Part shown: positions 1-20,246 of the stretch, piece after piece
How positions within the stretch are numbered: the first letter of the stretch is position 1
Layout of the letters: every line of letters starts with the position of its first letter
Origin: Candidatus Aenigmatarchaeota archaeon
Lineage (GTDB): Archaea > Aenigmatarchaeota > Aenigmatarchaeia > Aenigmatarchaeales > Aenigmatarchaeaceae
Direction of reading: 5' to 3'
Length of the DNA stretch: 64,000 nt
Assembly (NCBI GenBank): GCA_043802485.1
Contig: JAZDKZ010000006.1
Location: 199,497 to 263,496, forward strand
The notes under the pieces: generated by a model
What the model was told of the DNA's origin: nothing
What the model saw: the letters and a program-made list of their open reading frames with translations, nothing else
Database searches by the model: none
Made by a program: the position numbers and the translations under genes

Positions 1-930
1 GGCATATCCAACCCAGTGGCTTACACCGCAGTCAACTATTCTTTGTTAATTATTCTCGGGATAGCTTTAGCGATAGCGTCATACGCCTTCCTGGACAGCT
101 ATCAGAAGATAAGGATAAGAAAGGACATAGAGAAGATAGAGGACGAGTTCTCAACAGCGCTTTTCCAACTAGGCAATTCGATATCAGGAGGTCTGCCGCT
201 GGAGCTGGCAATTGAAAAGGCCAGAGCCAATCTGAAAGAGATGAGGATATCGGAATTCTTCGACATAATATCGCTTAACATGAAAAGGTTCGGCTACACC
301 TTCGAGCAGGCCCTGTTCGACAAAGACGTGGGAGCCCTGTGGTTCTACCCCTCTAATCTCATACAGTCGATAATGCAGACGTTGATGCAGTCTGCCAAGA
401 AGAGCGTCACATCAGCCGCCAATTCCATGATAATCATATCCAGGTACCTGAAGGATGTCCATGAGGTCAAGGAGGAGATAAACGAGATACTGGGAGAAAC
501 TATAACAAGCATGAAATTCTTGGCAATGTTCCTGGCACCAATGGTTTCTGGTGTAACTCTTACACTGGCAGTTGTCATACTGAGAATACTTGAGAACCTG
601 GGAGGAACAATGGGCAACATCATGGCCTCTTCAGGCGGCATGAACAGCTATCAAACCGTTATGCTGGTGCCGTGGGCCATGGGAACCGGCGGAGAGCCCC
701 TGATAACTCCGGCAATATTCCAACTGGTGGTTGGCTTGTACATGATAGAGACAGCTGTTCTTCTGTCAGTGTTCCTCAATGGTGTTAAATACGGAAACGA
801 TCCAGTAGGAATGAGGGAAGGCATGTGGATGATAGTTCTCTTCGGAATACTCATCTACATATTGAGCTGGTTCATAACCTATGCAATGTTCGGCACATCC
901 ATAGAAACTCTGCTCGCTGTTCCGACATAA
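1..930 (+). CDS. Type IV pilus/archaellum-type assembly platform membrane protein (T2SS-F, TadC/FlaJ/PilC-like); 5' end lies outside the window
   Basis: The frame is open from nt 1, and the tool start at 16 is a GTG inside that open frame. A helical soluble segment (GGLPLELAIEKA...FGYTFEQALFD) is followed by several hydrophobic helices, as in T2SS-F platform proteins. It heads a cluster of pilin-like genes. Confidence 0.6.
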   Translation, partial: GISNPVAYTAVNYSLLIILGIALAIASYAFLDSYQKIRIRKDIEKIEDEFSTALFQLGNSISGGLPLELAIEKARANLKEMRISEFFDIISLNMKRFGYTFEQALFDKDVGALWFYPSNLIQSIMQTLMQSAKKSVTSAANSMIIISRYLKDVHEVKEEINEILGETITSMKFLAMFLAPMVSGVTLTLAVVILRILENLGGTMGNIMASSGGMNSYQTVMLVPWAMGTGGEPLITPAIFQLVVGLYMIETAVLLSVFLNGVKYGNDPVGMREGMWMIVLFGILIYILSWFITYAMFGTSIETLLAVPT

Positions 931-959
931 ATATAAGTAGACCCGACAATTTTTCTTAT

Positions 960-2477
960 ATGAAAGGTACTATGACAGTATATGTCATCGTTATCACTGT
1001 CTCCGTGATAATAATTCTTCTGATAGGCTCACAACTTTTAGACAAAGTGAAAGCAGCAGTCGATGAGGAAGACTTTGACGCTTTCAGACAGTTTGAGGTT
1101 CAGAGGCCTTACATCTTTGACATTAAAGACCTTATCGTGGATCCTAACGACGAAAAAGTTTGGGACTCCACAAAAGCGGCAGACTTCTATTCTGGCGCCG
1201 ACTCTGATTTTTGCAAAGCGATAAAAGACGGCATAGGAAAGAGCATAAAGACAGGCAAGTCCCAGGAGATAGAGTACAAGGTAAAGCCTCCCAACGCGGC
1301 CTTCAAGATAGAGCAATTAAGAAACGCCCTGGCTTCCTGCACCCCAAGCGTCATAGGCGACGAGCTCTACGGCGGAACGACGAGAAAGATATGCGACTTC
1401 AAGCCCATTGACAATTACAACGAATACAGGGAAGACAGCCTGTCTCTAATAAATTATCAGCCGTACATACACAACTGCCATCTTCCTGCCGAGCTAGAGT
1501 ACTCCAACATTGATGACGGCGAGGACGCGTTAAACTACTTATACAGCGGCAGGGGCAACTCCACAGAATACGGTTTCGAGAACGGAGGGACCGTGAGGAT
1601 AGTCGTTTCTAACGCGAAGGTCATGGAAGATTATGACGGCACATGCTCCTACAATATCTATGTCTGCGGCCAGAACGCCATAGCAGCCTCCGAGGCAGAG
1701 ACCGCTGTTGAAGTCTTCAAGAAGATAAGGCATCTGGACGATAGTAACCTCTACTATAGCGAAGCTATAGTCTGGAACGGTGAGCCGAAAGAACTGGAAG
1801 CGGATATAAAAATATGGGCTCTTTGTAGAGCTATTTTCAGCGATTTGATTCAGCAATTTTTATGTCCCGATGATGCAAGACCATCGGTACCTGCGGGTTA
1901 TAATATATATGGATATAATCCTCATTATTATGAATTCGAATTTTCCAGTGCTGTTCCCAGTCCTAGGCTAGCGCTAATAGACGCTGTTGACGCTGGCATG
2001 TGGGAATGGAGCAAAATCCACTTGGAAGACAGAAACGCGATGCAATATTTTTTGGATGAATACTATCATAGCATACAAAATATATATTTCAGCTACTCAC
2101 CTATAGGAAACGATGACATAGATGTTGACAACGGTCTATCTTTTGACTCTGGCTGCTGGAGAGATACTTACGAAACGGCTGATGTAGGAATAAGAACGCA
2201 GATTTTTGACAGCGCGGTAGAAAGCTTCTCTTATTCCCCATCTTTCAACCACAAATTCAAATTTGATAGTACAATAATTGGCGACAAGGTAAGGATGACG
2301 ATGGGAATAAAGAAACTATTTATTACAAAAAAGCCTATGATATTCAAAACATTAACAGAAACAAAAGAAATTAACGTACTCGAAGAAGTGATTAACAAAT
2401 ACGGTCTTGATGAAGATTTTGGATCTAGAGTTATACTAATTATGGACCCCATAACGTTTTGTAGTATCAGTGAATAA
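960..2477 (+). CDS. Secreted/anchored protein, member 1 of a five-gene paralogous Cys-containing family; pilin-like N-terminus
   Basis: An in-frame ATG at 960 gives MKGTMTVYVIVITVSVIIILLIG. It shares CSYNIYVCGQNAIAA, DSGCW and the C-terminal VRMTMGIKK...ITFC modules with the ORFs at 2632, 4525, 6103 and 9089. Confidence 0.7.
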   Translation: MKGTMTVYVIVITVSVIIILLIGSQLLDKVKAAVDEEDFDAFRQFEVQRPYIFDIKDLIVDPNDEKVWDSTKAADFYSGADSDFCKAIKDGIGKSIKTGKSQEIEYKVKPPNAAFKIEQLRNALASCTPSVIGDELYGGTTRKICDFKPIDNYNEYREDSLSLINYQPYIHNCHLPAELEYSNIDDGEDALNYLYSGRGNSTEYGFENGGTVRIVVSNAKVMEDYDGTCSYNIYVCGQNAIAASEAETAVEVFKKIRHLDDSNLYYSEAIVWNGEPKELEADIKIWALCRAIFSDLIQQFLCPDDARPSVPAGYNIYGYNPHYYEFEFSSAVPSPRLALIDAVDAGMWEWSKIHLEDRNAMQYFLDEYYHSIQNIYFSYSPIGNDDIDVDNGLSFDSGCWRDTYETADVGIRTQIFDSAVESFSYSPSFNHKFKFDSTIIGDKVRMTMGIKKLFITKKPMIFKTLTETKEINVLEEVINKYGLDEDFGSRVILIMDPITFCSISE

Positions 2478-2478
2478 A

Positions 2479-2601
2479 ATGAAAGGATTCCAAAAAGAAA
2501 TCATAATAGGCGTTATCCTCATAGTGCTGGCGTTTTTTGTAGCATTGCTCTTTCTTTCAGGCGTCTTGACATTTGACATGATGGGTCTGTCACCTGTCTG
2601 A
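2479..2601 (+). CDS. 40-aa hydrophobic micro-protein (MKGFQKEIIIGVILIVLAFFVALLFLSGVL...)
   Basis: The ORF is below the track cutoff. It starts 2 nt after the stop of the previous gene and has an MKG start plus one hydrophobic helix, like its neighbours. Confidence 0.3.
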   Translation: MKGFQKEIIIGVILIVLAFFVALLFLSGVLTFDMMGLSPV

Positions 2602-2631
2602 TATTTATACAGGGATTATAAAATAAATTTT

Positions 2632-4497
2632 ATGAGAGGACTGTCCGCCCTTATTATAGCGATTATCTTTGCGGTTGTCTGGGTATTGCTAGTGATACTT
2701 TTTTTAAGACATGTCAATACTTTCGTAGAACCTGCCGGAAATTCTGAGAAAGGGTCAGAACAGAGGATAATACCAAATGACGGCTTTGACTACACCACTT
2801 ACCTTCTAAGTGAGGATCCTGTCGACTTGGCTACTTACGACGAATGCGACAAGCTCAAGAACGCAATAAAGTACGCGATTATCAACGAAAGGCCTTATCT
2901 TGTGGACACAATAGCATACGGCAGCAACCTTGTAGACAAGGTGGACTTTCCGTTCATAGGTAACTGCCTAGACGAGGACCTTGTATTCGAGATAGGTGAG
3001 GGTCTTGAACAAGTCGTGTGCAGATTCAGGACTGCCACGCAGAATGAAAAAGTCGGCTTAGAATTCGGGGGCATATCGGACGCATCGATGCTCTATTTTG
3101 ACAACTGTGTATACGCTTTCGACAACCACAACATACTTCCCTCATTATCGTCAAAGAATATAATGGGACCTGCTGTCGAGGAAACGAGCACAGACGCCAG
3201 CACGGTAAAGGTCATCTACTCGCCTGACCACATGTACATAGAAAACGGGGACTATTCGCATTACCCTTTTGTACCAACCAACTCACCTGTTGCAGGCCTT
3301 AATCGCTTGTATTTGATGAACAGTAGCGCCTTTGACATGGCTTACAACGGCGGTGGCTGGCTGAACATCTACGTGGGCAAGGCCGAGTCAGTCAACGGCG
3401 AATGTAGGTATAATGTGTATTTCTGCCCAAGGCCTGCCATAGCTAGTGACATGCAGAGCAGGACGCTTGACGTCTTCAACATATTCAGAAAGCTTGAGAT
3501 ATATCCTGTATACTTCCCCTATTACATAAGAGACCTTTCGGACGATGCCCTTGACATGTCCGGTTATTCTAATGAAGTTTACCATTGGAACTACTATGAT
3601 GTCGATTTAGGCGATGAGGGGTATGATGTCGAGACTATAGTAAACGCCATAAAGGCTGGCCTTTATTTCAACGTTCACTCCAAGGGTTACGAGTTCGCCC
3701 ATCCACACTGGGACATAGAAAAGGATGACAGTATATCAATTTACGAGCTGGCTAACAAGATAGCATTGCACATAGGCGTTAAAACAGGTTCAGGGGAAAT
3801 ATGCGCCCAAAAGGTGTATTTAGGCCTTCCGTACGGAGACAAGTACTGCACCACAACATCACTACTGCTTTTTGTGGACAGGGACGACCCTATCAAATCT
3901 TACAGGTTTACCAGCAATCCCCTTGGTGATAGCTTCACCCGTTTCGAGGGGAGCTTCGGTACAATACCATCTTCTGTTTACACCAGAAACATCAACACGA
4001 ACAGTTATTTGAACGCTGTATTCGGGGCAGACGATGGTATGATTGCAATAGATATAGGAGTCAAAGAGGGCATGGGGGAGATATGCGTTGACGACCAGTG
4101 CACAGACACCTCGATGATAGTAAAGATAAACCCTGGTACAGAAGTAACCATAAGTGCAAAAGAAGACCCTGGTTACGAGTTCGCCTTTTTCGAAGGCTCT
4201 AGCACAACTTATGATTTAGATACGTTTGATAGGACGATAAACTACGGTGATTTTTTGAACGTCATATTTGTTCCTAATGACGGCGAGATAGGCGATTGCT
4301 GGTACCAGTCCTACAACGAAATGCTGAACGATGCTTCAGAATGGAAACGGACACGCTCGATAAGGTTCAACTGTGGCGGTGACAATGTGTGTAGTGGCAC
4401 CCTGAGGATAAAAATGGCAATAAGGAAGGACACGGATGTTGATGGCGAGGACAAGAAAACATACGTCTCAAGTGTGGTTTCATTCTGCGATACTTAA
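2632..4497 (+). CDS. Secreted Cys-containing protein, family member 2, with two tandem beta-repeat (InlB-B-repeat-like) modules
   Basis: The N-terminus is MRGLSALIIAIIFAVVWVLLVILFL. Family motifs are CRYNVYFCPRPAIA, GDCW and GTLRIKMAIRK...VVSFCDT. An internal repeat reads IGVKTGSGEIC... / IGVKEGMGEIC...EDPGYEFAFFEG. Confidence 0.7.
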   Translation: MRGLSALIIAIIFAVVWVLLVILFLRHVNTFVEPAGNSEKGSEQRIIPNDGFDYTTYLLSEDPVDLATYDECDKLKNAIKYAIINERPYLVDTIAYGSNLVDKVDFPFIGNCLDEDLVFEIGEGLEQVVCRFRTATQNEKVGLEFGGISDASMLYFDNCVYAFDNHNILPSLSSKNIMGPAVEETSTDASTVKVIYSPDHMYIENGDYSHYPFVPTNSPVAGLNRLYLMNSSAFDMAYNGGGWLNIYVGKAESVNGECRYNVYFCPRPAIASDMQSRTLDVFNIFRKLEIYPVYFPYYIRDLSDDALDMSGYSNEVYHWNYYDVDLGDEGYDVETIVNAIKAGLYFNVHSKGYEFAHPHWDIEKDDSISIYELANKIALHIGVKTGSGEICAQKVYLGLPYGDKYCTTTSLLLFVDRDDPIKSYRFTSNPLGDSFTRFEGSFGTIPSSVYTRNINTNSYLNAVFGADDGMIAIDIGVKEGMGEICVDDQCTDTSMIVKINPGTEVTISAKEDPGYEFAFFEGSSTTYDLDTFDRTINYGDFLNVIFVPNDGEIGDCWYQSYNEMLNDASEWKRTRSIRFNCGGDNVCSGTLRIKMAIRKDTDVDGEDKKTYVSSVVSFCDT

Positions 4498-4524: not shown

Positions 4525-5148
4525 ATGACAAGTCCTTGGGCCAGTTTCACTTTCCGTGTTCTACTTATGGTTATATTGGTGCTTCTATTATTTATTTTTG
4601 TATCGTATATCCAACAGCTGCTGGCTAGGGGTGAGACACAAATGAATCCTGAGAAAGAGTACGAGGAGCCTCCGGAAGTAGAGGAGACCTACCTGAGCAT
4701 AGGCGAGGATGATGATCCTGAAACCATATTGTACAAGCTCTTTAGCGAATTTGACCCAGGCTTCCTGAATGAAAAGAGCGGAAACACGGCGCTGTACAAT
4801 CCATTCATACTTTACCTCAAGGGAAAAACTTATAGCCCGATTGACGCCAACGCGCTCATAGGCAACATAGTAGATGGCATTAACGAGTTTAATGACTTGC
4901 ACACATCTGCCCAGTTTGGCTTTAATCCTTCTATTGTCACATGTAACATCCACAGTTCGAGCAGCATAAACTATGACAGTGGCTGTTGGTCAAACACGCT
5001 CAGCACCTCGTCATATTGTAATATTTATGTTCATAGTAATACCAATATTTTTAGCGAAAGGATAAAGATAAGAGTATTGTTAACAAATCTGGGTCCTGTA
5101 ATGGGTAAGAGTATACTAAAAATTACTATAACGATGTGTGATGGTTGA
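4525..5148 (+). CDS. Short member 3 of the paralogous family
   Basis: It has an N-terminal hydrophobic helix. It retains DSGCWSNT, YCNIYVHS and ERIKIRVLL...ITITMCDG, the C-terminal module of the family. Confidence 0.6.
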   Translation: MTSPWASFTFRVLLMVILVLLLFIFVSYIQQLLARGETQMNPEKEYEEPPEVEETYLSIGEDDDPETILYKLFSEFDPGFLNEKSGNTALYNPFILYLKGKTYSPIDANALIGNIVDGINEFNDLHTSAQFGFNPSIVTCNIHSSSSINYDSGCWSNTLSTSSYCNIYVHSNTNIFSERIKIRVLLTNLGPVMGKSILKITITMCDG

Positions 5149-5446
5149 TGGCATGGAAATAAGAACAGCATTTTCAGTTATATTAGGCATAATGATGGTG
5201 GCGACTGTGATTATCGCCATGATTGCCCTGATGGGAGGACTAATGACAGTCTCGGTAGAGGAGTGCGAGCCTGCAGACTATTCTGCAGGAGGATATAGTG
5301 GGAAAGCATGTGGCACTTCAACCAGTGGGCAGCTGAGATGCCGTACAGGAGACACGTGCGTTGATTATAACAATGCTAGATGCTGCGAAGAGAATTATTT
5401 ACAGGAAATAAGGGATGGCCTATGTTGCAAGAGGGTAGAGGTTTGA
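5141..5446 (+). CDS. Small membrane-anchored Cys-rich protein
   Basis: The start is ambiguous (GTG 5138, ATG 5141 or ATG 5153) and overlaps the upstream stop. A hydrophobic helix is followed by 8 Cys (CEPAD...CGTSTSGQLRCRTGDTCVDYNNARCCEENY...LCC). Confidence 0.5.
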   Translation: MVDGMEIRTAFSVILGIMMVATVIIAMIALMGGLMTVSVEECEPADYSAGGYSGKACGTSTSGQLRCRTGDTCVDYNNARCCEENYLQEIRDGLCCKRVEV

Positions 5447-5450
5447 TTTT

Positions 5451-5630
5451 ATGAAAGCATTCGTTCAAAAGTATATAGCGATATTAATCGCGCTTTTGTT
5501 ATTCTTGAGTATAGTGGTTATATGGTTAGTTAACTTGAGACTGACAAGCGGACTTTTCGGAGACAAGACAACTGTAGTGATTATTGCAGGAGCTATAGCA
5601 ATGCTTTTAGGCATAAAGGGGATACCATGA
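5451..5630 (+). CDS. 59-aa two-helix membrane micro-protein
   Basis: MKAFVQKYIAILIALLLFLSIVVIW... The ORF is just below the track cutoff. Its stop overlaps the next start (ATGA at 5627-5630), which suggests coupling. Confidence 0.4.
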   Translation: MKAFVQKYIAILIALLLFLSIVVIWLVNLRLTSGLFGDKTTVVIIAGAIAMLLGIKGIP

Positions 5631-5845
5631 TTAAAAACATACCTTTAACTGTGGTGGTATTGATTTTGGCGTTACTGGTTACCAGTTTATTCATTTCGAT
5701 AGGTTATCGTGTCGCGACTGGCAAGAGCGCTAACGACGCTTGCAAATCTTTTGTAAGAGGAGAGTCAAAGGAGATATGGAACAGGGACGAGTTTAAGGTG
5801 TTCCATCCGGGCGATCTTGTTTGCGCCATAGTCGCCCCTTTTTAA
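5627..5845 (+). CDS. Small membrane-anchored protein
   Basis: N-terminal helix IPLTVVVLILALLVTSLFISIG. The start overlaps the upstream stop, and the gene is co-oriented in the island. Confidence 0.45.
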   Translation: MIKNIPLTVVVLILALLVTSLFISIGYRVATGKSANDACKSFVRGESKEIWNRDEFKVFHPGDLVCAIVAPF

Positions 5846-5854: not shown

Positions 5855-6061
5855 ATGGAAACAGCTATGGAAGAGGAAGCATATACAAAGGTAGTAATAA
5901 TCATAGTAGGTATACTGGCAGTGGTATTGTTCGTAGCGCTTCTTGACATAATGACAGGCGGAACACTCTTCAGGTCTTTGATATGCTCTATGGTATGGTA
6001 TCTTCCTCTAACAGGAACGAACCTCGTAGCATACCTTAACTGTGGCGCAGTTCCCCTATAA
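5855..6061 (+). CDS. Small membrane protein
   Basis: Hydrophobic core VVIIIVGILAVVLFVALLDIM. I preferred it over the antisense ORF 5851..6099 on operon orientation only. Confidence 0.35.
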   Translation: METAMEEEAYTKVVIIIVGILAVVLFVALLDIMTGGTLFRSLICSMVWYLPLTGTNLVAYLNCGAVPL

Positions 6062-11938: not shown

Positions 11939-12211
11939 TCATGACAAGCACCTGTTATCTACGCAGTCAAAGCTGCCGCAATCGGTATCATCGATACAGC
12001 CGCAGAAGTTCGAGCCTCCGTTTATGCTGAGGCATATGCCGTTGCCCCGTTCGCGGCATTCTGACGTTGTTTTGCACTCGTTGGAAGTCTGTGAAGAAGT
12101 GGCACCAATAGGTGCTGCGCGCGCCTGGTTAGAAAATAGGAAGCCAGAAAAAACAGACATCACTAACAAGAGGACAAACACCATCATCATCAAAATAAAG
12201 ACCAAGTCCAT
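11939..12211 (-). CDS. Small secreted Cys-rich (8 Cys) protein; the only minus-strand gene in the island
   Basis: A signal-like N-terminus (MDLVFILMMMVFVLLLVMSVFSGFLF) is followed by CKTTSECRERGNGICLSINGGSNFCGCIDDTDCGSFDCVDNRC. The overlapping plus-strand ORFs are low-complexity. Confidence 0.55.
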   Translation of the reverse strand: MDLVFILMMMVFVLLLVMSVFSGFLFSNQARAAPIGATSSQTSNECKTTSECRERGNGICLSINGGSNFCGCIDDTDCGSFDCVDNRCLS

Positions 12212-12274: not shown

Positions 12275-12592
12275 ATGGGTAAGGGTGCCAGTTTTGTAAT
12301 GAATATAATTATAATCGTGTTTATTGTGGTAATCATGGCACTTATCTACTTTCAGATTGTCAACCCGACGGTAAAGGCCCAAGAACAAGTGGTTTCAGAT
12401 ATGGATATAATGTGGTACTGCCCTGATTGGCAAAAGAACGGATGCTCGATTGTTAGCGCCGAAAATATCAAGATAAAAGATACTGACGACGGCTATCTCT
12501 CTGATCTCTGCGCAGAAAGATACGGTACTGCTTGGAGCAAAGATGTCTATGAGCAGTGCAAGGAGTTATGCAAAGGATGCACGAGTGAATAG
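12275..12592 (+). CDS. Pilin-like protein (small-pilin paralog A)
   Basis: MGKGASFVMNIIIIVFIVVIMALIYF has a KG followed by a hydrophobic helix. It has 4+ Cys and the tail DLCAERYG...CKELCKGC, shared with the ORFs at 18570, 18945 and 19890. Confidence 0.6.
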   Translation: MGKGASFVMNIIIIVFIVVIMALIYFQIVNPTVKAQEQVVSDMDIMWYCPDWQKNGCSIVSAENIKIKDTDDGYLSDLCAERYGTAWSKDVYEQCKELCKGCTSE

Positions 12593-12595: not shown

Positions 12596-12910
12596 ATGAT
12601 TATGAAAGGTGTTTCGTTAGCAGTAACAGCTGTCATACTGATGGTATTAGCAGCAGTAGTCCTTTTAGCATACATATACTTTATATCAGGCAGCAAAGGT
12701 CAGATAGACATACTGCAATACCAGTCAGCACTGAGAAGCTGTTGCGGTGACAGGACAAAATACAAATGCGATGGAATTACCATAAACTGCAAGGTTCCGT
12801 GGAGCGATGAGCCTATGTCTATTGATAAACTTGCTGAGAAAGCCGGTATAACATGGGATTCTACTGAATTTGACAGTTTTTGTTTCTGTCCAGAACCAGC
12901 AGGTGCTTGA
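12596..12910 (+). CDS. Pilin-like protein (small-pilin paralog B)
   Basis: (MI)MKGVSLAVTAVILMVLAAVVLLAYIY. An alternative ATG at 12602 gives an MKG start. The C-terminal half is Cys-rich, and the gene sits 3 nt after the upstream stop. Confidence 0.6.
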   Translation: MIMKGVSLAVTAVILMVLAAVVLLAYIYFISGSKGQIDILQYQSALRSCCGDRTKYKCDGITINCKVPWSDEPMSIDKLAEKAGITWDSTEFDSFCFCPEPAGA

Positions 12911-15900
12911 ATGGTAGCAATTACACAGGCAATAGAAACTGCAATAGCAGTTATAATATTCGTATTCCTAGTAATGCTTTTCTTCATGATATTCGGCAAT
13001 TCTGAATGCGAAGGCATGTCTGACTCGACGGCAGCGCAGCTAGCTGACGCCGTAAACAAGGTCGTGCTGGAAGACGGCATCCAACCGTGGACAGGAGGAG
13101 GCGTTCCAGGCGACGATGACACTGACTACTACGAACCTGTTGCCATAAGGCTCTGCGAGGTAAACTCTATGAACGGGTTTGCAGCTCAGTTCATGGCGCA
13201 GCAGCCTACATACATGATTGTTTTTGAATCCTTTCCCGAAGGCACTGTTTCTTGGCACGAGACTCAACCCTGGAGCGGGGGCGCTGTCCAAGCAGTATTA
13301 GAGTATTCACAGATGAGATGGGGGCTTAAAGCATTGACTTTTGGCGGAAAGCTTACTGCGATATTGGTGAGAAGGGGTGGAGGGTTTGTCAAAAACGTTA
13401 TAACAAAATACTCGTGGGCGCTTTTAGGCAGAAAACTCACCAGAGCTTTGGACTATGTTAGGAACAGTCGGATTGTCAAATGGTTCATGGTCAAGTTGGG
13501 CAGATCAAACACCCAGACAACTATCGCCGATACAGCAGACGACTTCCTCAACCCGAGATATATGACTAACAATAATTTGGGGTTGACCAGCGAATACAAC
13601 AAATTCTTGTTGGTGTCTAAAAAAGGCAGAGACCATGCTCTGGTAGCTATGGGAGCAATAGAAGGAGTATTCGACTACAGTGCAAATGCTTTTGTCCCAA
13701 TACCAAACAAAGCAGGAAAGTATATTGTCAATGAAGGCTTCAGAGACTTTATGATTAATTTTGTAGACAATATGGGTGAAGACGGCAAGGTTCTGGGTGA
13801 TATGCTCCAGATACCATCAAGATTCCCAAAACTCGCTGAAAGACTAAGCAGTATCAAAGATCGTTTATGGCGCCCGCTCAAAGGAGCTGTAACAGACTGG
13901 TGGCACGATAGCAGCCTGAAAAGATACGTCTATGACGCACCGAGAGAACTCTACAGAAAGATAAGGGGAAAAACAGACGATGCAAAGAATGCGTTCAACA
14001 AAATATTCAACTATGGGAACGGCATGACCGATCCTAGGATAATATCCAAACAGGCAGGAGCTGCCAAAGAATACGCGATGAGGAACAGCGACAAGCTCAT
14101 GAAGGAGGTAGTCGACAATTTTGACGACCCGAAGATAGCAGACTTTGTAAATGATCTGCAAAAGGTTACAGGAAAGGTCTACGAGAGCGGTGCCGACATA
14201 ACTCAGACTGACATAATTTCGTACATAAACAAGTACAACAGATGGGAAAACATGCAGGACTTTGTAGAGTTCCTACCAAGGGAGCAGCTGGACCTGAGGA
14301 GTAATGCATACAAATGGATGGGGGGGGATATAAAGGACAGCGCTGAAAAATTGAAGAAAGGAGATATTTCATACGAGACTTTCATTGAAAGGTTTAAACC
14401 TTGGGACGATTTGGAGGGAAGACAAAGTGATTTGGTAAATGATTTCTCTAAAGGCTATACAAGGAATGGCCAAAAATTCACTATTGAAGTCGAACACGCT
14501 AAAGACGCATACGAGTACGCCAGATTAAGGGCAGCAGCAGAAGGGATATTTGACGCTGCAAATAGTGGTAGAACGAACTGGCTCGCAAACCAGGCTGACG
14601 AAATAGAAACCGCTCTAATAAGAGAGCAGTACAGACTGGACAAGTATGTTACAGACGATGTGAAAATAATAGACTATATAATGAAAAACTCCATATCAGA
14701 TTCTTCCCTGGATAAATTCCCCTTAGTGACAAATACCCTCAGTTATGGATGGCAGAGATTAAAGAGGGGAGTGTATCTGGACCTTAACAGGATAGGCGGG
14801 ATAGAGGGAGCCCCGTCATTAGCACCTTATAATTTAGTCCCAGGAGCCTACACGGCTGAGAGGGTGGTTGAAAAGGAGACTGAGATAAAAGAAGGCGGGT
14901 GCGCCAGCAATTCGATATGCAGGATAGTGAAAGGCCGTGCAGAGGGCCCGACAGAAACTGCCAGAGCATACTTACTTGATAGGAAGGTTCCAGAAGGTAT
15001 AGAAGTAAAGCTTTGGAGGGAAAACCCAGACATTGGTGTTGTCGGATCAGACAGAACTGTCGCAGGCGTTAACACGATATTAATGAGCATATTTCCGCCT
15101 CAGGAGAATCCTAATTTCTATGTGGTAAGCCCGTGCTTTGCAATTGCCAAGGTCTGGAAAGAAGGAAGCGAAGGGCCTGTTTACGTAGAGATAGACAAGA
15201 GCAAGAAATGTGATGTCAGCGGTTGCAATCAGCTAACCACCGACAACGTCGACACACCAAACTATTGCTATGCTAGCGAGGAGTTTGTATGGGGGGAGAG
15301 TGACGAACCCAACCAGTGGAGCTATGTGGCCGCTTATTTTGGATGCGTATTCGCTTGCGAAGGCGGTACAATAGGTCTAGGAACGCCCGAGTGCATAAAG
15401 ACTTGTAAATATAGCACTATAGGAGCATTGCTATTGCAAGCAACGGCTGCAACGCAGGAATATAGAAGCCCGAGCTGGGAAAGACAAGACACAGGCTGGG
15501 GCTATTGGAACTATCAAAAGGCAGAAGACGTATGCGACCTGATAGACATGGTATCCAGCATAGGCGGTGGAAAAAGTTTTACTAATGCTAAAGGCCTTGA
15601 CAAGCTAAAAGCAGCAAAGGGGCTGGGAGAAAAGTGGGATATTTTCAAACAACTGGGCAAGGGCGACGTGGCAAAATTCGTCGGAGGGCAGTTCTTCAAC
15701 CTTAACGACGTGTGCTACAGCCTGCTGCTTATGGGAGACACATCTTTGTCATGGCCTGTAAAGACACCGGCAGCCGAAGTTTGGAGAAAGGGAGCCATTC
15801 TAGGACAGGACTGCATGCAGCAGTCGGCAGGCAGTTGTGTATGGCTGAGAAAGTGCACCAACGCAGCAAATGATTGCCCAATAGGTTGGTATTGCGACAT

Positions 15901-15931
15901 GGATGCGAACATTTGCAGAAAGGGTGATTAG
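12911..15931 (+). CDS. 1006-aa membrane-anchored protein of unknown function with a six-Cys C-terminal module
   Basis: The ATG directly abuts the upstream TGA. N-terminus MVAITQAIETAIAVIIFVFLVMLFF, then a long charged helical middle. The C-terminus is C-x7-C-x5-C-x6-C-x5-C-x6-C (CMQQSAGSCVWLRKCTNAANDCPIGWYCDMDANIC). I recognised no family. Confidence 0.7.
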   Translation: MVAITQAIETAIAVIIFVFLVMLFFMIFGNSECEGMSDSTAAQLADAVNKVVLEDGIQPWTGGGVPGDDDTDYYEPVAIRLCEVNSMNGFAAQFMAQQPTYMIVFESFPEGTVSWHETQPWSGGAVQAVLEYSQMRWGLKALTFGGKLTAILVRRGGGFVKNVITKYSWALLGRKLTRALDYVRNSRIVKWFMVKLGRSNTQTTIADTADDFLNPRYMTNNNLGLTSEYNKFLLVSKKGRDHALVAMGAIEGVFDYSANAFVPIPNKAGKYIVNEGFRDFMINFVDNMGEDGKVLGDMLQIPSRFPKLAERLSSIKDRLWRPLKGAVTDWWHDSSLKRYVYDAPRELYRKIRGKTDDAKNAFNKIFNYGNGMTDPRIISKQAGAAKEYAMRNSDKLMKEVVDNFDDPKIADFVNDLQKVTGKVYESGADITQTDIISYINKYNRWENMQDFVEFLPREQLDLRSNAYKWMGGDIKDSAEKLKKGDISYETFIERFKPWDDLEGRQSDLVNDFSKGYTRNGQKFTIEVEHAKDAYEYARLRAAAEGIFDAANSGRTNWLANQADEIETALIREQYRLDKYVTDDVKIIDYIMKNSISDSSLDKFPLVTNTLSYGWQRLKRGVYLDLNRIGGIEGAPSLAPYNLVPGAYTAERVVEKETEIKEGGCASNSICRIVKGRAEGPTETARAYLLDRKVPEGIEVKLWRENPDIGVVGSDRTVAGVNTILMSIFPPQENPNFYVVSPCFAIAKVWKEGSEGPVYVEIDKSKKCDVSGCNQLTTDNVDTPNYCYASEEFVWGESDEPNQWSYVAAYFGCVFACEGGTIGLGTPECIKTCKYSTIGALLLQATAATQEYRSPSWERQDTGWGYWNYQKAEDVCDLIDMVSSIGGGKSFTNAKGLDKLKAAKGLGEKWDIFKQLGKGDVAKFVGGQFFNLNDVCYSLLLMGDTSLSWPVKTPAAEVWRKGAILGQDCMQQSAGSCVWLRKCTNAANDCPIGWYCDMDANICRKGD

Positions 15932-16651
15932 ATGAAGAGTATAACAGAGCATTTCTTGCTGTTCATAGTGGGCATATTCGTCATTGTTATAGTCATGACA
16001 ACAATATTCGGAAAAGGAATAGCCTACAATTATCTAAGCTACCTGTCGACCATCGAGCCGAGAGGCCTCCAAGAGAACATAAGAAACGTGCTGACTGTAG
16101 CATCCTATTCGCCAGGAGAGTTTGAGGCAAGGATTCCGATAAACGTCAAGCACAGCATAACCATAACAGACAACCCGAAGACCATTGTCATTCTACCCGA
16201 ATCGGAAAGCCAGCTGGCGCAGACAAATCCGCAGCCTTTCATGTCACAGTGCGACATGGTCAAGAGGTGCACAAAGGTCTGCAAGATGATAGGCGACAAA
16301 TGCGCTGGGCGTGAGGATTGCTGCGGCCTGCTCAGCTGCAATACAAGAGGCCGCTGCGAGAGCACCTTTGGCATGTGCGGCAACCAGATTCTTGAAGATG
16401 GAGAAGAGTGCGAGCCTGCAGACCCGGAAGGAGAACCACCCTTTGATGGTATTGATAATAATTGTGAAAGCCAGTGCAGCGAGGACTGTAGTTGTCCTGA
16501 TGAGTTAAAAACCACCCAGCCATGCACAAACAGTAACCAATGCTTCCATCAGATGGAATGCCTCACCTTCGTAAAGTTCTACGACGTGGGAGAGGTAATG
16601 ATTATAAGAAAGTATTTTGAGGGAGACCAATGCAAGATAACCATCGAATGA
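15932..16651 (+). CDS. Membrane-anchored protein with a knottin-spaced Cys module and a CGN...GEEC repeat
   Basis: The ATG abuts the upstream TAG. N-terminus MKSITEHFLLFIVGIFVIVIVMTTIF. CKMIGDKCAGREDCCGLLSCNTRGRC has C6C5CC4C5C spacing, and CGNQILEDGEECEPAD resembles the myxococcal Cys-rich repeat. Confidence 0.65.
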   Translation: MKSITEHFLLFIVGIFVIVIVMTTIFGKGIAYNYLSYLSTIEPRGLQENIRNVLTVASYSPGEFEARIPINVKHSITITDNPKTIVILPESESQLAQTNPQPFMSQCDMVKRCTKVCKMIGDKCAGREDCCGLLSCNTRGRCESTFGMCGNQILEDGEECEPADPEGEPPFDGIDNNCESQCSEDCSCPDELKTTQPCTNSNQCFHQMECLTFVKFYDVGEVMIIRKYFEGDQCKITIE

Positions 16652-17121
16652 AGGGGGCCTTCGCCCTTAGCGAGACTTTCATAAAAATACTGTCAACAGG
16701 AGTGTTGGCGATAATACTCCTGGCCATTTTTCTGTCGATAAACAATTATCACCTTATCTACGCGGAGAATGCAATCGACAGGGAGGCCCTTATTGTCGGC
16801 AACACTGTGCTGTCCAGCTGCATAGCGGAAGGCTACGACGAAGGAAAGCCTATAAAGGCCCTTTTGTCAGAGGAGAAGATAGTATACAAATATGATTCTG
16901 TAAGCGAATCAAACATAGACTGCTTGGAATATGAAAAGGGAATATACATAGAGATTTATGACGAGGATTCATTGTTGTACGGATTTGGAGACAGGCATGT
17001 GTGTAAAAGCCCGTCAAATACCATTTGTGAGGTGGACAGGGGCATGATGGTATTTCCCGCTGCGCTGAAAGGAGCAGCAATCGTGATACCTGTAACTGTG
17101 AACGTATATGTTGGTGATTAG
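16648..17121 (+). CDS. Pilin-like protein (minor-pilin candidate)
   Basis: The ATG at 16648 overlaps the upstream stop (ATGA). N-terminus MKGAFALSETFIKILSTGVLAIILLAIFL. Confidence 0.6.
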   Translation: MKGAFALSETFIKILSTGVLAIILLAIFLSINNYHLIYAENAIDREALIVGNTVLSSCIAEGYDEGKPIKALLSEEKIVYKYDSVSESNIDCLEYEKGIYIEIYDEDSLLYGFGDRHVCKSPSNTICEVDRGMMVFPAALKGAAIVIPVTVNVYVGD

Positions 17122-17682
17122 ATGAAAGGAATAGAGCTTTTGGCATCAATACTGGCGTTAATGATAATGATAGGTGTGGGTTCGCTTTTCGGAGGCATAA
17201 TAATATCAGTCATAAACCTCTCCGAACAGCCCAGTCTCGGTCCTATACACTATGAGATGTTCATGTTTCCCGCATACCCGCCGGTAAAGTACGAGACCAT
17301 GCTGCTCTCGTATCTGGAGACCACGGAGCCCTCTTCAGGCTTGCAGATAAAAAAGATACTGACCTACGCGGCCTATCAGAGGACCATTGACAGCATCTAC
17401 ATAGAAGGAGAGACCATAAGCAGAAGCGAGCTGGAGCAGGCGACCAGAGATGTTTTCGAGAAGTGGCTACCTGGAGGAGCGTACCTTATAGAGCTGAAGA
17501 TAGGAAAAGAGAACCATGTCATAGCGAAGAACTCTGACGTCCTGGGAAAGCTGTCAAAAGAAGTGTTGAGAATAAGGAAAATATCTGTGCCGCTGTTCAT
17601 TGATGAAGAGACTTACATTGCCAACTACCCCAAAAACAGCGAGCTGCCAATGAATATCATTCTTGATTTTTATGTCCAATAG
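17122..17682 (+). CDS. Pilin-like protein (minor-pilin candidate)
   Basis: The ATG abuts the upstream TAG. N-terminus MKGIELLASILALMIMIGVGSLF. Confidence 0.6.
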   Translation: MKGIELLASILALMIMIGVGSLFGGIIISVINLSEQPSLGPIHYEMFMFPAYPPVKYETMLLSYLETTEPSSGLQIKKILTYAAYQRTIDSIYIEGETISRSELEQATRDVFEKWLPGGAYLIELKIGKENHVIAKNSDVLGKLSKEVLRIRKISVPLFIDEETYIANYPKNSELPMNIILDFYVQ

Positions 17683-18520
17683 AAAAGGCATGACCATACC
17701 TGTGCTGGGAACCGTTTTGATAGTGATAGCTGTAGTCATCACTTCATTCGGAGGTGTCTTTAGCCAGCAGTTCGCGGTAGAGAAGCTACAGAGTGGAGGG
17801 CTGACAATGTCGTTGCAAAACCACGAAGAGTTCTGGATAAAGGCCTTTGATCAGAGCGTGGAAATAATAGCCAAGAGGTCTGCCTTCGAGTTAGCAAGAA
17901 CTGGAGGCTTCCAAAGCTCAGAACCTGCAACATGGTACAAAGACTATCCAACCATGGAAATACTCGAAAGCGAGCTGGAGAAGAAAATAAACAGGAATCT
18001 GCCGGTAGGCAATATAAACGCCAAGAGGAGCATAGAGTTCTACAACAGCATAATAGACGTCAGCGGCTATGACACGGACTGCCTTGTAAACTCAAAATCA
18101 GAATGCTTTATCGTTGACGGAGAAAAGTACTTTGCCATAAGTGACAAGTCAATAGAAGCAAAGATGTCACTTGACCCGCACACTTTCAGTTACAAGATAG
18201 GCTCCAACTACTTTAGGCTCATGAAAGCTGGAAGGATAATAATGGACGAGTACAACACCGAATTTGACAACGTGGCAGGCCTGCTGAACACGCTGAGAGC
18301 TGATTCAAGGTTTGACGGTCTACATCTGGAAACAGCCTTGGTGGACGGCCTGATAGAGTTCAGGATATCTGATAGGGAATGCGTAAGTAGCGGCAAGTAC
18401 TTTTGCCTTGCCCCGACAAAACATGACGAATATGGAGCAGTACTCGGAGGCACTAGAGTTCCTTATGACTTTCTGATACTCAAGTTCAGGGTGGACAAAG
18501 AAAACCTGTACCACGACTAG
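17672..18520 (+). CDS. Pilin-like protein (minor-pilin candidate)
   Basis: The ATG at 17672 overlaps the upstream gene by 11 nt. N-terminus MSNRKGMTIPVLGTVLIVIAVVITSF (RKG plus a hydrophobic helix). Confidence 0.6.
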   Translation: MSNRKGMTIPVLGTVLIVIAVVITSFGGVFSQQFAVEKLQSGGLTMSLQNHEEFWIKAFDQSVEIIAKRSAFELARTGGFQSSEPATWYKDYPTMEILESELEKKINRNLPVGNINAKRSIEFYNSIIDVSGYDTDCLVNSKSECFIVDGEKYFAISDKSIEAKMSLDPHTFSYKIGSNYFRLMKAGRIIMDEYNTEFDNVAGLLNTLRADSRFDGLHLETALVDGLIEFRISDRECVSSGKYFCLAPTKHDEYGAVLGGTRVPYDFLILKFRVDKENLYHD

Positions 18521-18569: not shown

Positions 18570-18893
18570 ATGGAACTCTCAATAAATGCTGTCATCATAA
18601 TTATAATAGCAATGATAGTTCTTTTGGCAATAGGTTCTTTGTTCACTGGAGTATGGAGCCCCCAGAAACGAGGGATCCAAGTCGAGATGGCAAAGAACAA
18701 CGCATGCCGCATGCTCTCATTATCCAACTGCGAAACAGAACTGGATAAGATAAAAATCAAGGACTTTGATGTGGACAATGATGGAGTTGTAGGAAATGAT
18801 GATGACGACACACTTAAACTGCTCTGCTCTAGTTATTACGGCATGGATGACGAGAACGATTGCAAAACGAAGATATGCGATTGTGAGGAATGA
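18570..18893 (+). CDS. Small pilin paralog C, lacking the KG leader
   Basis: MELSINAVIIIIIAMIVLLAIG. An in-frame TGA at 18546 prevents a longer leader. It has 4+ Cys, FDVDNDGVVGNDDDD and the tail LLCSSYYG...CKTKICDC. Confidence 0.65.
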   Translation: MELSINAVIIIIIAMIVLLAIGSLFTGVWSPQKRGIQVEMAKNNACRMLSLSNCETELDKIKIKDFDVDNDGVVGNDDDDTLKLLCSSYYGMDDENDCKTKICDCEE

Positions 18894-18944
18894 GCCAAAA
18901 GCTTATATATCCGGTTTATCAATAAAATTAAAAGGTGAAAAACA

Positions 18945-19367
18945 GTGAAAGGTATCGAATTACCAATAAACATTTTAGTGATAGTTGCAGTGGCTGTTAT
19001 CGTTTTACTAGGTCTGGTTGCTTTGTACTTTAGCGGCTTCATGGGCCCAGCAGGCGTCATGAATGCGCAGGCAACGAAACAGAAATATTGCGCATCCATA
19101 ATGAACAATCCAATGGGTTGCCAAGGCGGTGTGTATACAAGCAGTATACAGATAAACGATTTTGATGCAGACAAAGACGGGGTCTTAGGAACTTCGGACG
19201 GCGGCACAAGTTGGCATGAAACCGATGCTGTATGGGACAGCCAGTTACCGGTTGATGTTTGCACAGCAGACGACAACGTTCAAGACAACCTGGCATCATT
19301 GCTGGCTTGCTACTTTGGAGCAACATCCGAAAGAAACGCCCTGCAAATATGTGGCTGCACGATATAG
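18945..19367 (+). CDS. Small pilin paralog D
   Basis: The GTG start sits after AGGTGAAAAACA. N-terminus MKGIELPINILVIVAVAVIVLLGL, with FDADKDGVLG and the tail LLACYFG...QICGC. Confidence 0.7.
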   Translation: MKGIELPINILVIVAVAVIVLLGLVALYFSGFMGPAGVMNAQATKQKYCASIMNNPMGCQGGVYTSSIQINDFDADKDGVLGTSDGGTSWHETDAVWDSQLPVDVCTADDNVQDNLASLLACYFGATSERNALQICGCTI

Positions 19368-19507
19368 GAAAATAAGAGCCAAGACCTTTATGTCAGTTAA
19401 AACTGTGATAAAGTAAAGCCTTTTGAGTTTTTGACCCTTATTTTTATTCTTAATCACGTTCAACGGTTTACAACAAACCACTAATACAAAATCAAAGAGG
19501 TGAAAAA

Positions 19508-19804
19508 ATGGCAGAAAACACAAAAAAAGAAGCAGAGAGCAACGTGGTCTTTGTCGGCAAAAAGCCGGCAATGAGCTATGTTCTTGCATGCGTAACACAG
19601 TTCAACGAGGGAAATACTGAGATAATGCTGAGAGCAAGAGGAAGGGCAATATCTCACGCAGTGGACGTAGCAGAGATAGTGAAAAACAAGTTTGTGACAG
19701 ATACAGAGATCAAGAACGTCAAGATAGACACAGAGGAAGTCGAAACAGATAGCGGTGAGAAGCTGAACGTTTCCTCGATAGAGATTACGCTTGGCAAAAA
19801 GTGA
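19508..19804 (+). CDS. albA: Alba (Sso10b-type) DNA/RNA-binding protein
   Basis: The 98-aa sequence [21 protein letters not shown]...[24 protein letters not shown] is typical of Alba. There is a strong SD (GAGGTGAAAAAATG). Confidence 0.85.
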
Positions 19805-19889
19805 TTCAGTTTTCCAGGGGCTTTAGTTTTTTGCCCTTTGCAACCTTTCTTGGGTTATTTTTATATATGCGTTTCCTCAAATAGAAATT

Positions 19890-20246
19890 ATGAAGGGTAT
19901 TTCACTTCCGATAAATGTTCTGGTAATTGTCATTGTAGCAGTGATAGTTCTTTTGGGCGTGATGGCCCTGTTCATGGGAACTTGGTCTCCTTTCGGGACC
20001 TCAATGAGTGCGGAAGCTGCGAAATCAGCAGGATGCAGAAAAGTGATAAACAATTGTTATAAATCGGAGGAAGATCTTGATACTTATACCAAAACTATTT
20101 TGATATTCAATGGTCAAGATGGTCTGCCTAATTTTGACGTTGATGGTATTGATTATGTTGGTACTGGGGTGAATGGAGACAACATGTATAATTTATGTGT
20201 TAAATTTTATGGCGCAAAATGCAGAGATCTGTGCGGTTGCCAGTGA
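19890..20246 (+). CDS. Small pilin paralog E
   Basis: MKGISLPINVLVIVIVAVIVLLGV, nearly identical in N-terminus to the ORF at 18945. It has FDVDGIDYVGTG and the tail NLCVKFYGAKCRDLCGC. Confidence 0.7.
   Translation: MKGISLPINVLVIVIVAVIVLLGVMALFMGTWSPFGTSMSAEAAKSAGCRKVINNCYKSEEDLDTYTKTILIFNGQDGLPNFDVDGIDYVGTGVNGDNMYNLCVKFYGAKCRDLCGCQ

Follow-up and report, generated by a model that had tools for sequence, protein, structure and literature searches.

A probable type IV filament locus encoding pilin-like and giant surface proteins in a Candidatus Aenigmatarchaeota (DPANN) archaeon

Positions 1-20246 of the window, i.e., of the 64,000-nucleotide stretch of DNA which was analysed, can with good confidence be read as the part of a type IV filament locus (T4P/Tad-like) of a Candidatus Aenigmatarchaeota (DPANN) archaeon that lies distally and encodes the substrates. 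On this reading, it supplies the pilins and adhesins of a type IV pilus-like machine that is common to tiny symbiotic archaea. A first-pass annotation had described a pilus-like surface locus that unites a platform gene with numerous pilin-like proteins of class III type and with giant secreted paralogs, which is supported here, and had suspected a small-genome symbiotic archaeon as the source. The window indeed comes from a Candidatus Aenigmatarchaeota MAG, in which it forms part of an NCBI contig of 265 kb, and an archaeal 16S as well as Alba are found within the window. The additional suggestion of an unprecedented combination of genes has to be softened, as DPANN Tad/T4P-like loci, along with their ‘dark matter’ pilins, have already been noted (PMC11291902, PMC6393860, PMC9563170). 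The locus type thus was noticed earlier; it is its pilin and adhesin families which are undescribed. The island proteins are identical to V1818_03710..03815, all annotated as ‘hypothetical’, meaning that approximately 22 surface proteins of a previously noticed locus type still carry only that label.

The island consists of a partial T2SSF/TadC-type platform gene, 22 genes whose products each possess exactly one N-terminal hydrophobic segment (20 on the plus strand, two on the minus strand), and one Alba gene. Layout, orientation and sizes, including large proteins of 505, 621, 982, 901 and 1006 aa, are as first described, except that the minus-strand genes number two rather than one (11796-11942 and 11939-12211), with the two translationally coupled to each other. 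All six coupled junctions previously pointed to, i.e., 5627, 12911, 15932, 16648, 17122 and 17672, check out. Three of these are direct abutments (12910/12911, 15931/15932 and 17121/17122). At 5627 a 59-aa ORF (5451-5630) and g06 share an ATGA overlap, at 16648 the g13 stop is overlapped by the ATG of the MKG-leader gene g14, and at 17672 the overlap is 11 nt. The more likely start of g05 is 5153 and that of g14 is 16648.

Upstream machinery is known from the loci of relatives; the window itself begins inside g01 (1-930, plus strand, as are all genes below unless stated otherwise). What is present of g01, its 5' end lying outside of the window, encodes the C-terminal 309 aa of a second platform protein (TadC/T2SSF-like) with at least 4 TM segments. 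By itself g01 matches Pfam T2SSF only below the cut-off (E=0.003, 17.8 bits versus 25.2). Members of its family do reach that threshold, with homologs P0015 and P0021 carrying precomputed PF00482 and the L035 homolog, at 28.7 bits, exceeding the T2SSF gathering score. Consistent with the platform assignment made originally, and as had been expected for the ATPase, a T2SSE ATPase along with a first platform half precedes g01 wherever upstream sequence is covered among 46 related loci (Aenigmatarchaeota, Nanohaloarchaea), including in the closest relative, L051, where g01 identity is 87%. The relatives’ ATPase scores 46.3 bits against T2SSE, and its best PDB matches are A. fulgidus GspE (1e-29), FlaI (2e-16) and CpaF (2.5e-15). 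In the closest relatives the platform is split into halves of 307-324 aa and 339-400 aa; in most related loci both halves are fused as one ORF of ~690 aa. The prepilin peptidase which also had been anticipated upstream is seen in one locus only, L030, where a Peptidase_A24 gene adjoins the platform (29.1 bits versus a 26.5 cut-off); in most relatives it is absent from the 10 kb upstream.

Gene order in relatives, which it had been proposed to check, is collinear with ATPase and platform across the two phyla. The full conserved locus begins with four polytopic membrane proteins and two divergently transcribed coiled-coil proteins, the latter with 34-36 tblastn matches covering both phyla, and continues with the T2SSE-family ATPase, the first platform half, the second half (g01) and then the genes seen in the window.

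Nine K/R-G leaders had been quoted, and each of them is there. A scan of the first 14 residues for [KR][GA] with a strongly hydrophobic stretch of 20 residues behind it recovers nine distinct island genes, including g08 with its MKA leader, and only spurious or internal-start ORFs from the other 44 kb. The MKG-leader gene g14 falls narrowly under the hydrophobicity cut-off of that scan, and three more small genes, g02b (MKG), g05b (MKA) and g09b (MKG, minus strand), possess leaders as well. The total thus is 13 island genes with leaders of 3-7 residues ending in K/R-G/A, and nine products (g04-g07, g09, g09c, g12, g13, g17) lacking one. In related loci the motif is seen in 114 of 421 cluster ORFs versus 6 of 291 ORFs that lie upstream of the ATPase and serve as controls. 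Among 132 leaders across loci, position -2 is K in 114 and position -1 is G in 105, with MKG the modal leader (63/132). The class III signal architecture proposed at the outset accordingly stands, with cleavage itself presumed.

The products are Cys-rich, as had been claimed, with Cys at 3.43% in the island versus 1.42% in ten housekeeping proteins from the same window. Cys counts furthermore are even in all 18 of the Cys-containing island proteins, and in 171 of 187 cluster ORFs of related loci versus 31 of 77 controls (Fisher p=1e-17). Such even counts are an extracytoplasmic signature. Both patterns, leader and even-Cys, exceed chance in related loci.

The genes g02-g09 represent a lineage-variable, fast-evolving accessory adhesin module which is found in some lineages only, where its order is collinear directly after the platform gene in several. 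Versus L051, surface genes including g02-g09 display 45-72% identity, as against 87% for g01; ATPase identity is 80% (L001 versus L051). A paralog set is formed by g02, g03, g04, g08 and g09. Of these, g02 (960-2477; V1818_03710, hypothetical) is a 505-aa MKG-leader protein with 10 Cys and has orthologs in L001, L005, L007 and L051; it shares a C-terminal module with g04 (4525-5148), which is an N-terminally anchored protein of 207 aa with 4 Cys. The 621-aa g03 (2632-4497; MRG leader, 14 Cys) has a weak InlB B-repeat-like segment (Flg_new_2 E=0.009, under the cut-off). The 982-aa giant g08 (6103-9051; MKA leader, 48 Cys) has the paralog core and carries 14 CxxC motifs as an array over residues 119-244 along with an InlB B-repeat-like segment at its C-terminus. 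Its 901-aa paralog g09 (9089-11794; 38 Cys) has an N-terminal anchor but no K/R-G leader. Interspersed are small products. The 40-aa mini pilin-like peptide g02b (2479-2601; MKG-FQKEIIIG, the putative cut following MKG) has orthologs of 40-43 aa in L001 and L051. Next come the N-terminally anchored, Cys-rich g05 (5153-5446; 97 aa, 8 Cys), the MKA-leader small membrane protein g05b (5451-5630; 59 aa), and two single-TM proteins with 2 Cys each, g06 (5627-5845; 72 aa) and g07 (5855-6061; 68 aa), the latter kept in core loci. On the minus strand are g09b (11796-11942), a 48-aa MKG-leader mini pilin-like peptide with counterparts of 46-52 aa in L001 (minus strand) and in L013 and L050 (plus strand), and g09c (11939-12211), an N-terminally anchored, Cys-rich protein of 90 aa with 8 Cys.

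The conserved core is g10-g20. Small pilins with 6 Cys each are g10 (12275-12592; 105 aa, MGKG leader), g17 (18570-18893; 107 aa, P0031), which starts at the +1 position and hence has no leader, g18 (18945-19367; 140 aa, GTG start, MKG leader, P0032), which contains a DxDxDG-like loop, and g20 (19890-20246; 118 aa, MKG leader, P0033, 100% identical). These four group as one family, with g10 aligning to A3 using hhalign at a probability of 93.9% (E=1.5e-7). The small pilin-like g11 (12602-12910; 102 aa, MKG leader, 6 Cys) aligns to A3 over its N-terminal 57 columns (probability 86.8%). The core giant g12 (12911-15931; 1006 aa) belongs to a family with only 88 representatives among 1.84e9 proteins, and its orthologs in L009 and L016 bear MKG/MRG leaders. 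Also found here are g13 (15932-16651; 239 aa, N-terminally anchored, 18 Cys), the MKG-leader pilin-like proteins g14 (16648-17121; 157 aa) and g15 (17122-17682; 186 aa), and g16 (17672-18520; 282 aa, MSNRKG leader), whose homologs are longer, one of them with CARDB and DUF4215 adhesion-type domains.

Pilin-like and giant island proteins have no match in Pfam or NCBIfam (pilin or class-III-signal families) or in the PDB. AlphaFold models predict pilin-type N-terminal helices, with heads that match no known folds. For g20 (AF2, pLDDT 85) an N-terminal helix at 8-31 and a helical head are predicted, the head lacking a PDB fold match and solved archaeal pilins having beta-rich heads; g20 is a candidate shaft subunit. 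The g12 model (AF2, mean pLDDT 77.6) has helices at 2-28 and 31-52 and then strands. Its pilin-type N-terminal helix leads into an alpha/beta domain of small size, after which come a long region of helical bundle, a beta domain at about 660-770 and a C-terminus that is helical and contains Cys. It has no fold match in the PDB or among viral folds.

From these features we infer the following possible mechanism. The N-terminal hydrophobic helix would insert the 22 products into the membrane, and those with an M-K/R-G/A leader would be trimmed by a prepilin peptidase of the A24 type, whose gene would lie elsewhere in the genome. ATPase and platform would then pull products out of the membrane and stack them via their N-terminal helices, giving rise to a surface filament or short stalk. 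The shaft might be built from disulfide-bonded 100-140 aa pilins (g10, g11, g17, g18, g20), perhaps along with the 40-60 aa mini-pilins, with g13-g16 serving as minor or priming pilins. The pilin-headed large proteins (g02, g03, g08, g09, g12) could then be displayed as adhesins for host-cell contact.

From a different perspective, ATPase, platform and peptidase might instead build a short, membrane-proximal stalk that anchors large binding proteins, i.e., a bindosome- or pseudopilus-like display. This reading is of clearly lower probability. At least 13 different pilin-like genes are present among which no obvious single major pilin stands out, five products of 500-1000 aa have pilin-type N-termini, and large class-III-signal substrate-binding proteins handled by TFF machineries have been discussed (Sivabalasarma & Albers 2026). 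A domain search finds a substrate-binding-protein domain in no island product, however, and the conserved small-pilin family, with its 4-5 paralogs, is as expected for a shaft.

That the N-terminal segments stay uncleaved and act as ordinary signal anchors, with these proteins tethered neighbours rather than substrates of T4P machinery, would fit with the unmatched pilin families, with several members lacking the K/R-G motif, and with head folds differing from those of known pilins. It nonetheless is improbable given the strong, cluster-specific conservation of K/R at -2, G/A at -1 and a 3-residue leader, collinearity with ATPase and platform across two phyla, peptidase A24 within one locus, and translational coupling along the operon. 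Least probable of all is an island of foreign surface proteins that was gained by horizontal transfer or is mobile (viral or plasmid). Restriction of the g02-g09 module to some lineages, and its fast evolution, could be so explained, but GC (0.42-0.46) is inside the range of the remaining window, no integrase, transposase, flanking tRNA or repeat is seen at the module’s borders, its order after the platform is shared by several lineages, and g12 has no viral fold match.

A type IV filament locus remains the preferred reading, and four known systems may be compared with it. Cluster-2 DPANN possess conserved CCP loci that are type IV pilus-like (Hamm et al. 2024, Nat Commun, PMC11291902), an arrangement which is conserved in Nanohaloarchaeota and Aenigmarchaeota and matches the coiled-coil genes beside a CpaF-like ATPase and TadC-like platform in the window’s relatives. 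The available portion of that paper labels only CCP, CpaF and TadC (one locus) and FlaF and PilA (the other locus), however, and describes neither the ~22 genes for pilin-like and giant proteins further downstream nor the g02-g09 module or the embedded Alba. Archaeal TFF ‘System 1’ or clade 1, to which the Epd pilus of Methanococcus maripaludis belongs, has been reported from some DPANN as well as from methanogens (Makarova et al. 2016, PMC4858521; Sivabalasarma & Albers 2026 preprint). It too combines an ATPase with two genes for the platform, a wide variety of pilins and accessory proteins, the split platform being shared by the window’s closest relatives. The differences are that window products have no match to Class_IIIsignal/DUF361 or another Pfam/NCBIfam pilin family, and that platform halves are fused in most related loci.

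With the bacterial Tad/Flp pilus there is in common the ATPase’s resemblance to CpaF, a platform split like TadB/TadC, and very small (40-60 aa) pilin-like peptides together with large pseudopilin-like proteins, the latter comparable to TadG. The G/XXXXEY Flp motif is absent from window products, however, and the relatives’ ATPase is closer to archaeal GspE. No secretin is to be expected, since the organism, an archaeon, has just one membrane. The Sulfolobus bindosome (Bas), reportedly proposed to be a short stalk anchoring binding proteins at the cell surface, likewise has large extracellular proteins with pilin-type N-termini and a T4P-like ATPase and platform. It differs in that window products lack solute-binding domains, and in that their Cys-rich and helical-bundle architectures have no known homologs (Pfam, NCBIfam, PDB).

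One gene stands apart. All of 1-20246 had been counted as surface island, which does not hold for g19 (19508-19804), a non-surface Alba chromatin protein (Pfam Alba E=5e-20). Its position among small pilin genes is kept in relatives of both phyla.

The island, at window positions 1-20246, is best read as encoding proteins that a type IV filament machine would assemble, i.e., pilins for the shaft, minor pilins, and large adhesins which are pilin-headed, much as the first-pass annotation had suggested in describing a pilus-like surface locus. Besides the partial gene g01 and the Alba gene g19, the island comprises 22 genes, every product of which possesses a single N-terminal hydrophobic segment. 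Twenty of these genes lie on the plus strand and two on the minus strand. The latter, g09b (11796-11942; 48 aa with an MKG leader, below the 60-aa ORF cut-off) and g09c (11939-12211; 90 aa and Cys-rich), are coupled to each other, and therefore the original statement that all but one of the genes are co-oriented becomes all but two. Also under the 60-aa cut-off, and on the plus strand, are g02b (2479-2601), encoding a 40-aa mini pilin-like protein with an MKG leader, and g05b (5451-5630), encoding a 59-aa protein with an MKA leader. The six junctions previously described as coupled are all true overlaps or abutments. In GC content the island does not stand out from the rest of the window, and TATA-like boxes are seen approximately 25-45 nt 5' of g02, g03, g04, g08, g09, g10, g17, g18, and g20, which suggests several short, putative transcription units that would be largely leaderless.

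The products of g17, g18, and g20 are identical to NCBI entries V1818_03800, V1818_03805, and V1818_03815, respectively, and those of g02, g03, g06-g09, g12, g13, and g15 to further V1818_037xx proteins. All of these entries derive from a Candidatus Aenigmatarchaeota MAG, from a contig of 265,076 bp (with proteins MFH0929435.1 to MFH0929451.1), and all carry the label 'hypothetical protein'. The organism therefore is a DPANN archaeon, in keeping with the earlier guess of a small-genome symbiont.

Thirteen island products, where at least nine had been counted previously, begin with a leader of 3-7 residues ending in K/R-G/A, with about 20 hydrophobic residues following. These leaders match the class III signal pattern and may be cleaved, and scanning the other 44 kb of the window for such leaders yielded no credible match. 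Among the related loci found in other genomes the motif is seen in 114 of 421 ORFs downstream of the platform gene versus 6 of 291 upstream of the ATPase gene, counts which are based on crude ORF calls. Across loci the -2 position is K in 114 of 132 leaders and the -1 position is G in 105 of 132, with M-K-G the modal leader (63/132). No island protein matches archaeal pilin HMMs (Class_IIIsignal/DUF361, Pilin_N, or the archaellin N-terminal domain) at E<=1, nor do any of 99 small-pilin family members match Pfam or NCBIfam pilin models at E<=0.01.

The island was also described as Cys-rich, which is borne out by a cysteine content of 3.43% for its products versus 1.42% for housekeeping proteins of the window. 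Cysteines, furthermore, come in even numbers in all 18 of the 18 Cys-containing island proteins, and across loci in 171 of 187 cluster ORFs versus 31 of 77 controls (Fisher p=1e-17). Even counts such as these are the signature of paired, extracytoplasmic cysteines. There is no enrichment of N-glycosylation sequons in island products (0.18 vs 0.23 per 100 aa).

The machinery that would assemble such proteins is represented in the window by g01 (1-930, plus strand), which encodes a partial polytopic membrane protein with at least four TM segments, is open at the left window edge, and was initially taken to specify a T2SS-F/FlaJ-like platform. Its own match to Pfam T2SSF is sub-threshold (E=0.003; 17.8 bits, under the 25.2 cut-off), but its family does reach the threshold: the homologs P0015 and P0021 carry precomputed PF00482 assignments and the nanohaloarchaeal ortholog of locus L035 scores 28.7 bits against T2SSF, with that match found in the g01-equivalent half. 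The gene encodes a polytopic T2SSF/TadC/FlaJ-family platform, which is a mark of the type IV filament (TFF) superfamily. A profile of this family, based on an alignment including fused full-length platform proteins, returned no match from the PDB.

Scanning of GTDB representative genomes yielded 46 related loci, from Aenigmatarchaeota and Nanohaloarchaea. An ATPase of ~740 aa along with a first platform half, the latter weakly matching T2SSF, precede the g01 equivalent in every related locus that reaches upstream. The relatives' ATPase scores 46.3 bits against Pfam T2SSE, and its best solved matches are A. fulgidus GspE (1e-29), FlaI (2e-16), and CpaF (2.5e-15). The window starts inside g01, and for the window's own genome an ATPase and a first platform half upstream of g01 are strongly predicted by synteny with these relatives. 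The platform is split between two genes in L051 (the closest relative), L001, and L002, whereas in most other loci it is one fused ORF of ~690 aa. Two divergently transcribed coiled-coil genes are found 5' of the ATPase gene in relatives, and tblastn matches to them number 34-36 over the two phyla. A Peptidase_A24 gene adjoins the platform gene in just one relative, L030 (29.1 bits vs a 26.5 cut-off); none is found in the window, nor in the flanks of most related loci as screened for multiple TM segments plus a GxGD motif.

Two further features of these upstream regions may be mentioned. The pilus ATPase gene contains one or two inteins in a number of loci, i.e., L008 (5076-8852; Intein_splicing and LAGLIDADG_3), L043 (2842-8673; two intein domains), and also L009, L016, L034, L038, and L050. 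In Aenigmatarchaeota loci, moreover, four conserved polytopic membrane proteins, of ~160-190 aa and with two of them paralogs, are encoded upstream of the coiled-coil pair (L001 3325-5569, with equivalents in L006-L010, L014, L016, L018, L020, and L050). These four may belong to the same system.

Conservation of gene order, which the first-pass annotation had named as a check, is seen in that the cluster is collinear with the ATPase and platform genes in two phyla, with the accessory module g02-g09 present in some loci only. That module directly follows the platform in L001, L005, L007, L011-L015, L020, L050, and L051. In L002, L006, and L008-L010 the platform is followed instead by a core of g07-, g12-, g14-, and g16-like genes, and in L002 and L009 small pilins and Alba come after this core. 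The locus of Nanohaloarchaea is compact, ~6 kb. In it the platform gene is followed by one of ~60 aa, by a pilin-headed one of 470-810 aa, and by several peptides of 40-80 aa, after which come three or four proteins of 110-200 aa, one of ~330 aa, and finally Alba. Identity to the closest relative is 87% for g01 and 45-72% for g02, g03, g04, g05, g07, and g08, with the ATPases of L001 and L051 80% identical. Divergence is therefore much more rapid in the surface genes than in the motor.

The distal Alba gene (g19; 19508-19804, plus strand; Pfam E=5e-20) has counterparts at the distal cluster ends of L002, L009, L016, L018, L035-L049, L052, and L053. This linkage is common to Aenigmatarchaeota and Nanohaloarchaea, and in Aenigmatarchaeota-type loci the gene is found among those for small pilins. 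The cassette following g09, which encodes a Cys-rich protein of ~90 aa along with a mini-pilin of ~47 aa, occupies the minus strand of both the window (11796-12211) and L001 (20666-21081). In L013 and L050 it is on the plus strand with its order reversed, a difference which looks like a local inversion.

The small pilins g17, g18, and g20 are paralogs, with g10 joining their family by hhalign (93.9%, E=1.5e-7) and g11 in part. A Pfam domain is present in none of the family's 373 database matches. Among the near-invariant residues are K2, G3, L6, P7, I8, N9, and several cysteines including a C-terminal C-x-C, with a DxDxDG-like loop visible in the alignment as well. The AlphaFold model of g20 (99 sequences; pLDDT 85) predicts an N-terminal helix at residues 8-31 and a small helical head, for which Foldseek found nothing in the PDB at E<=0.001. 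Spread of this family beyond DPANN archaea is not established, as a match labelled otherwise, P0034 ('Candidatus Heimdallarchaeaceae archaeon' at NCBI), lies in L052 (ENA k141_332414, 242,608 bp), where the gene-size series (666, 97, 67, 103, 94, 824, 152, ..., 167, with Alba and a pilin next) agrees with that of Aenigmatarchaeota-type L006 as far as L006 extends. The taxonomic label or the binning is therefore suspect.

Among the larger proteins, g02, g03, g04, g08, and g09 form a paralog set, with modules common pairwise. Of these, g08 has 14 CxxC motifs in a single array, and both g03 and g08 possess InlB B-repeat-like segments, though below the Pfam threshold; a profile of the g02/g03 family found no match in the PDB. 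The g12 family is narrow, with 88 representatives among 1.84 billion proteins. Its model (pLDDT 77.6) predicts a pilin-type N-terminal helix (2-28, 31-52), followed first by strands and a long stretch of helical bundle and then by a beta domain, with the C-terminus again helical. Foldseek with this model found nothing at E<=0.001 in the PDB or among viral structures, and a profile of the family matched only compositional coiled-coil or helical PDB entries. A homolog of g16 has CARDB and DUF4215 domains.

Not all pilin-type N-termini bear leaders. In L009 and L016 the g12 ortholog has an MKG or MRG leader, whereas g12 of the window begins straight at the hydrophobic helix. Indeed, g17 (18570), g12 (12911), and g13 (15932) all begin at the +1 residue of leader-bearing paralogs or orthologs (L002, L006, L009, L016), as illustrated by M-ELSIN of g17 versus MKG/IELPIN of g18 and by MVAITQ of g12 versus MKG/TEITTQ of L009, the slash here marking the predicted cleavage site. 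With g17 and g12 both starting at their relatives' +1 residue, leaderless variants thus arise repeatedly.

As a type IV filament, the system would operate by an A24 peptidase trimming the leader-bearing products, by ATPase and platform polymerizing the trimmed products, and by the fast-evolving giants contacting a host. The data fit either this or its main rival, in which the same machinery builds not a long pilus but a short display stalk, bindosome- or pseudopilus-like. Bindosome-type proteins with class III signals carry a solute-binding domain, and behind the pilin-type N-termini of the island there is no match to any SBP family. Alternatively, the N-terminal segments might be uncleaved signal anchors unconnected to the machinery, which is unlikely because positions -2 and -1 are conserved and the genes are collinear with that machinery across two phyla. 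That the island is a mobile element is very unlikely given its native composition, its collinear synteny, and the lack of an integrase at its module borders. Nor is the locus an archaellum, as Pfam matches to FlaB archaellins, FlaF/G, FlaH, or FlaC/D/E are found neither in the island nor in the related loci examined.

The kind of system involved is already known, since DPANN T4P/Tad-like loci have been published. Hamm et al. (2024; PMC11291902) describe two T4P-like loci, with coiled-coil proteins, CpaF, and TadC, as conserved among cluster-2 DPANN archaea, including Aenigmarchaeota and Nanohaloarchaeota, and the coiled-coil genes, CpaF-like ATPase, and TadC-like platform of these cluster-2 CCP/T4P-like loci are the same upstream context as seen in the window's relatives. 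Makarova et al. (2019; PMC6393860) regarded DPANN dark-matter genes beside FlaI and TadC as probably diverse pilins, a 2022 Microbiome study of Ca. Nanohaloarchaeota (PMC9563170) reported Tad clusters for which 'no pilins were annotated', and Sivabalasarma & Albers (2026) assigned 'System 1' loci, with two platform genes and many pilins, to methanogens and some DPANN archaea. Bacterial Tad/Flp systems have separate TadB and TadC platform proteins, as do L001, L002, and L051 but not the majority of loci, with their fused ORF. The Flp pilin motif G/XXXXEY, by contrast, is not found in the island, where positions +1 to +6 lack a conserved E-Y and +2 often is E, S, or A. Several things appear to be new: the pilin and adhesin families, which Pfam, NCBIfam, and the PDB lack; pilin-headed proteins of giant size; an accessory module that varies among loci; MKG leaders that are ultrashort, with some variants leaderless; and the conserved placing of Alba among pilin genes.

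Physical contact with a host is a requirement for DPANN archaea, and little is known of the molecules which mediate it. The window offers a candidate parts list, open to direct testing, in which a family of small pilins and a pilin-headed protein of 800-1000 aa are conserved. Also on this list are minor pilin-like proteins and a variable module of giant Cys-rich paralogs which evolve much faster than the machinery, as host-recognition proteins should. Tentatively, and with some doubt, the locus might be viewed as the host-attachment organelle of Aenigmatarchaeota and Nanohaloarchaeota, i.e., a type IV filament with giant (500-1000 aa), disulfide-knotted, rapidly diversifying pilin-headed proteins in the fibre or at its tip, their folds without known relatives, and with leaderless variants (g17, and g12 versus its MKG orthologs) entering without prepilin-peptidase cleavage. 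If so, then the adhesin arrays displayed on the pilus would represent a new class, and DPANN host recognition would have a concrete molecular candidate.

Elsewhere in the window is a complete archaeal 16S rRNA gene (21724-23204, minus strand), which along with Alba identifies the window as archaeal. No 23S or 5S rRNA gene is present in the 64-kb window, so the 16S gene appears to be unlinked from other rRNA genes. Between it and the last pilin gene a very basic protein of 140 aa with 7 Cys is encoded (20369-20791, plus strand). An 860-aa ORF (55497-58079, minus strand) has an intein (Intein_splicing, LAGLIDADG_3) within an apparent HerA-type ATPase, its C-terminal extein matching HerA structures at ~4e-8. 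A 127-nt Rfam tRNA match with no ARAGORN call (25981-26107, minus strand) is probably an intron-containing tRNA gene, and a tandem pair of tRNA-Asn(GTT) genes, with 57 nt between them, is found at 35860-36063 (minus strand).
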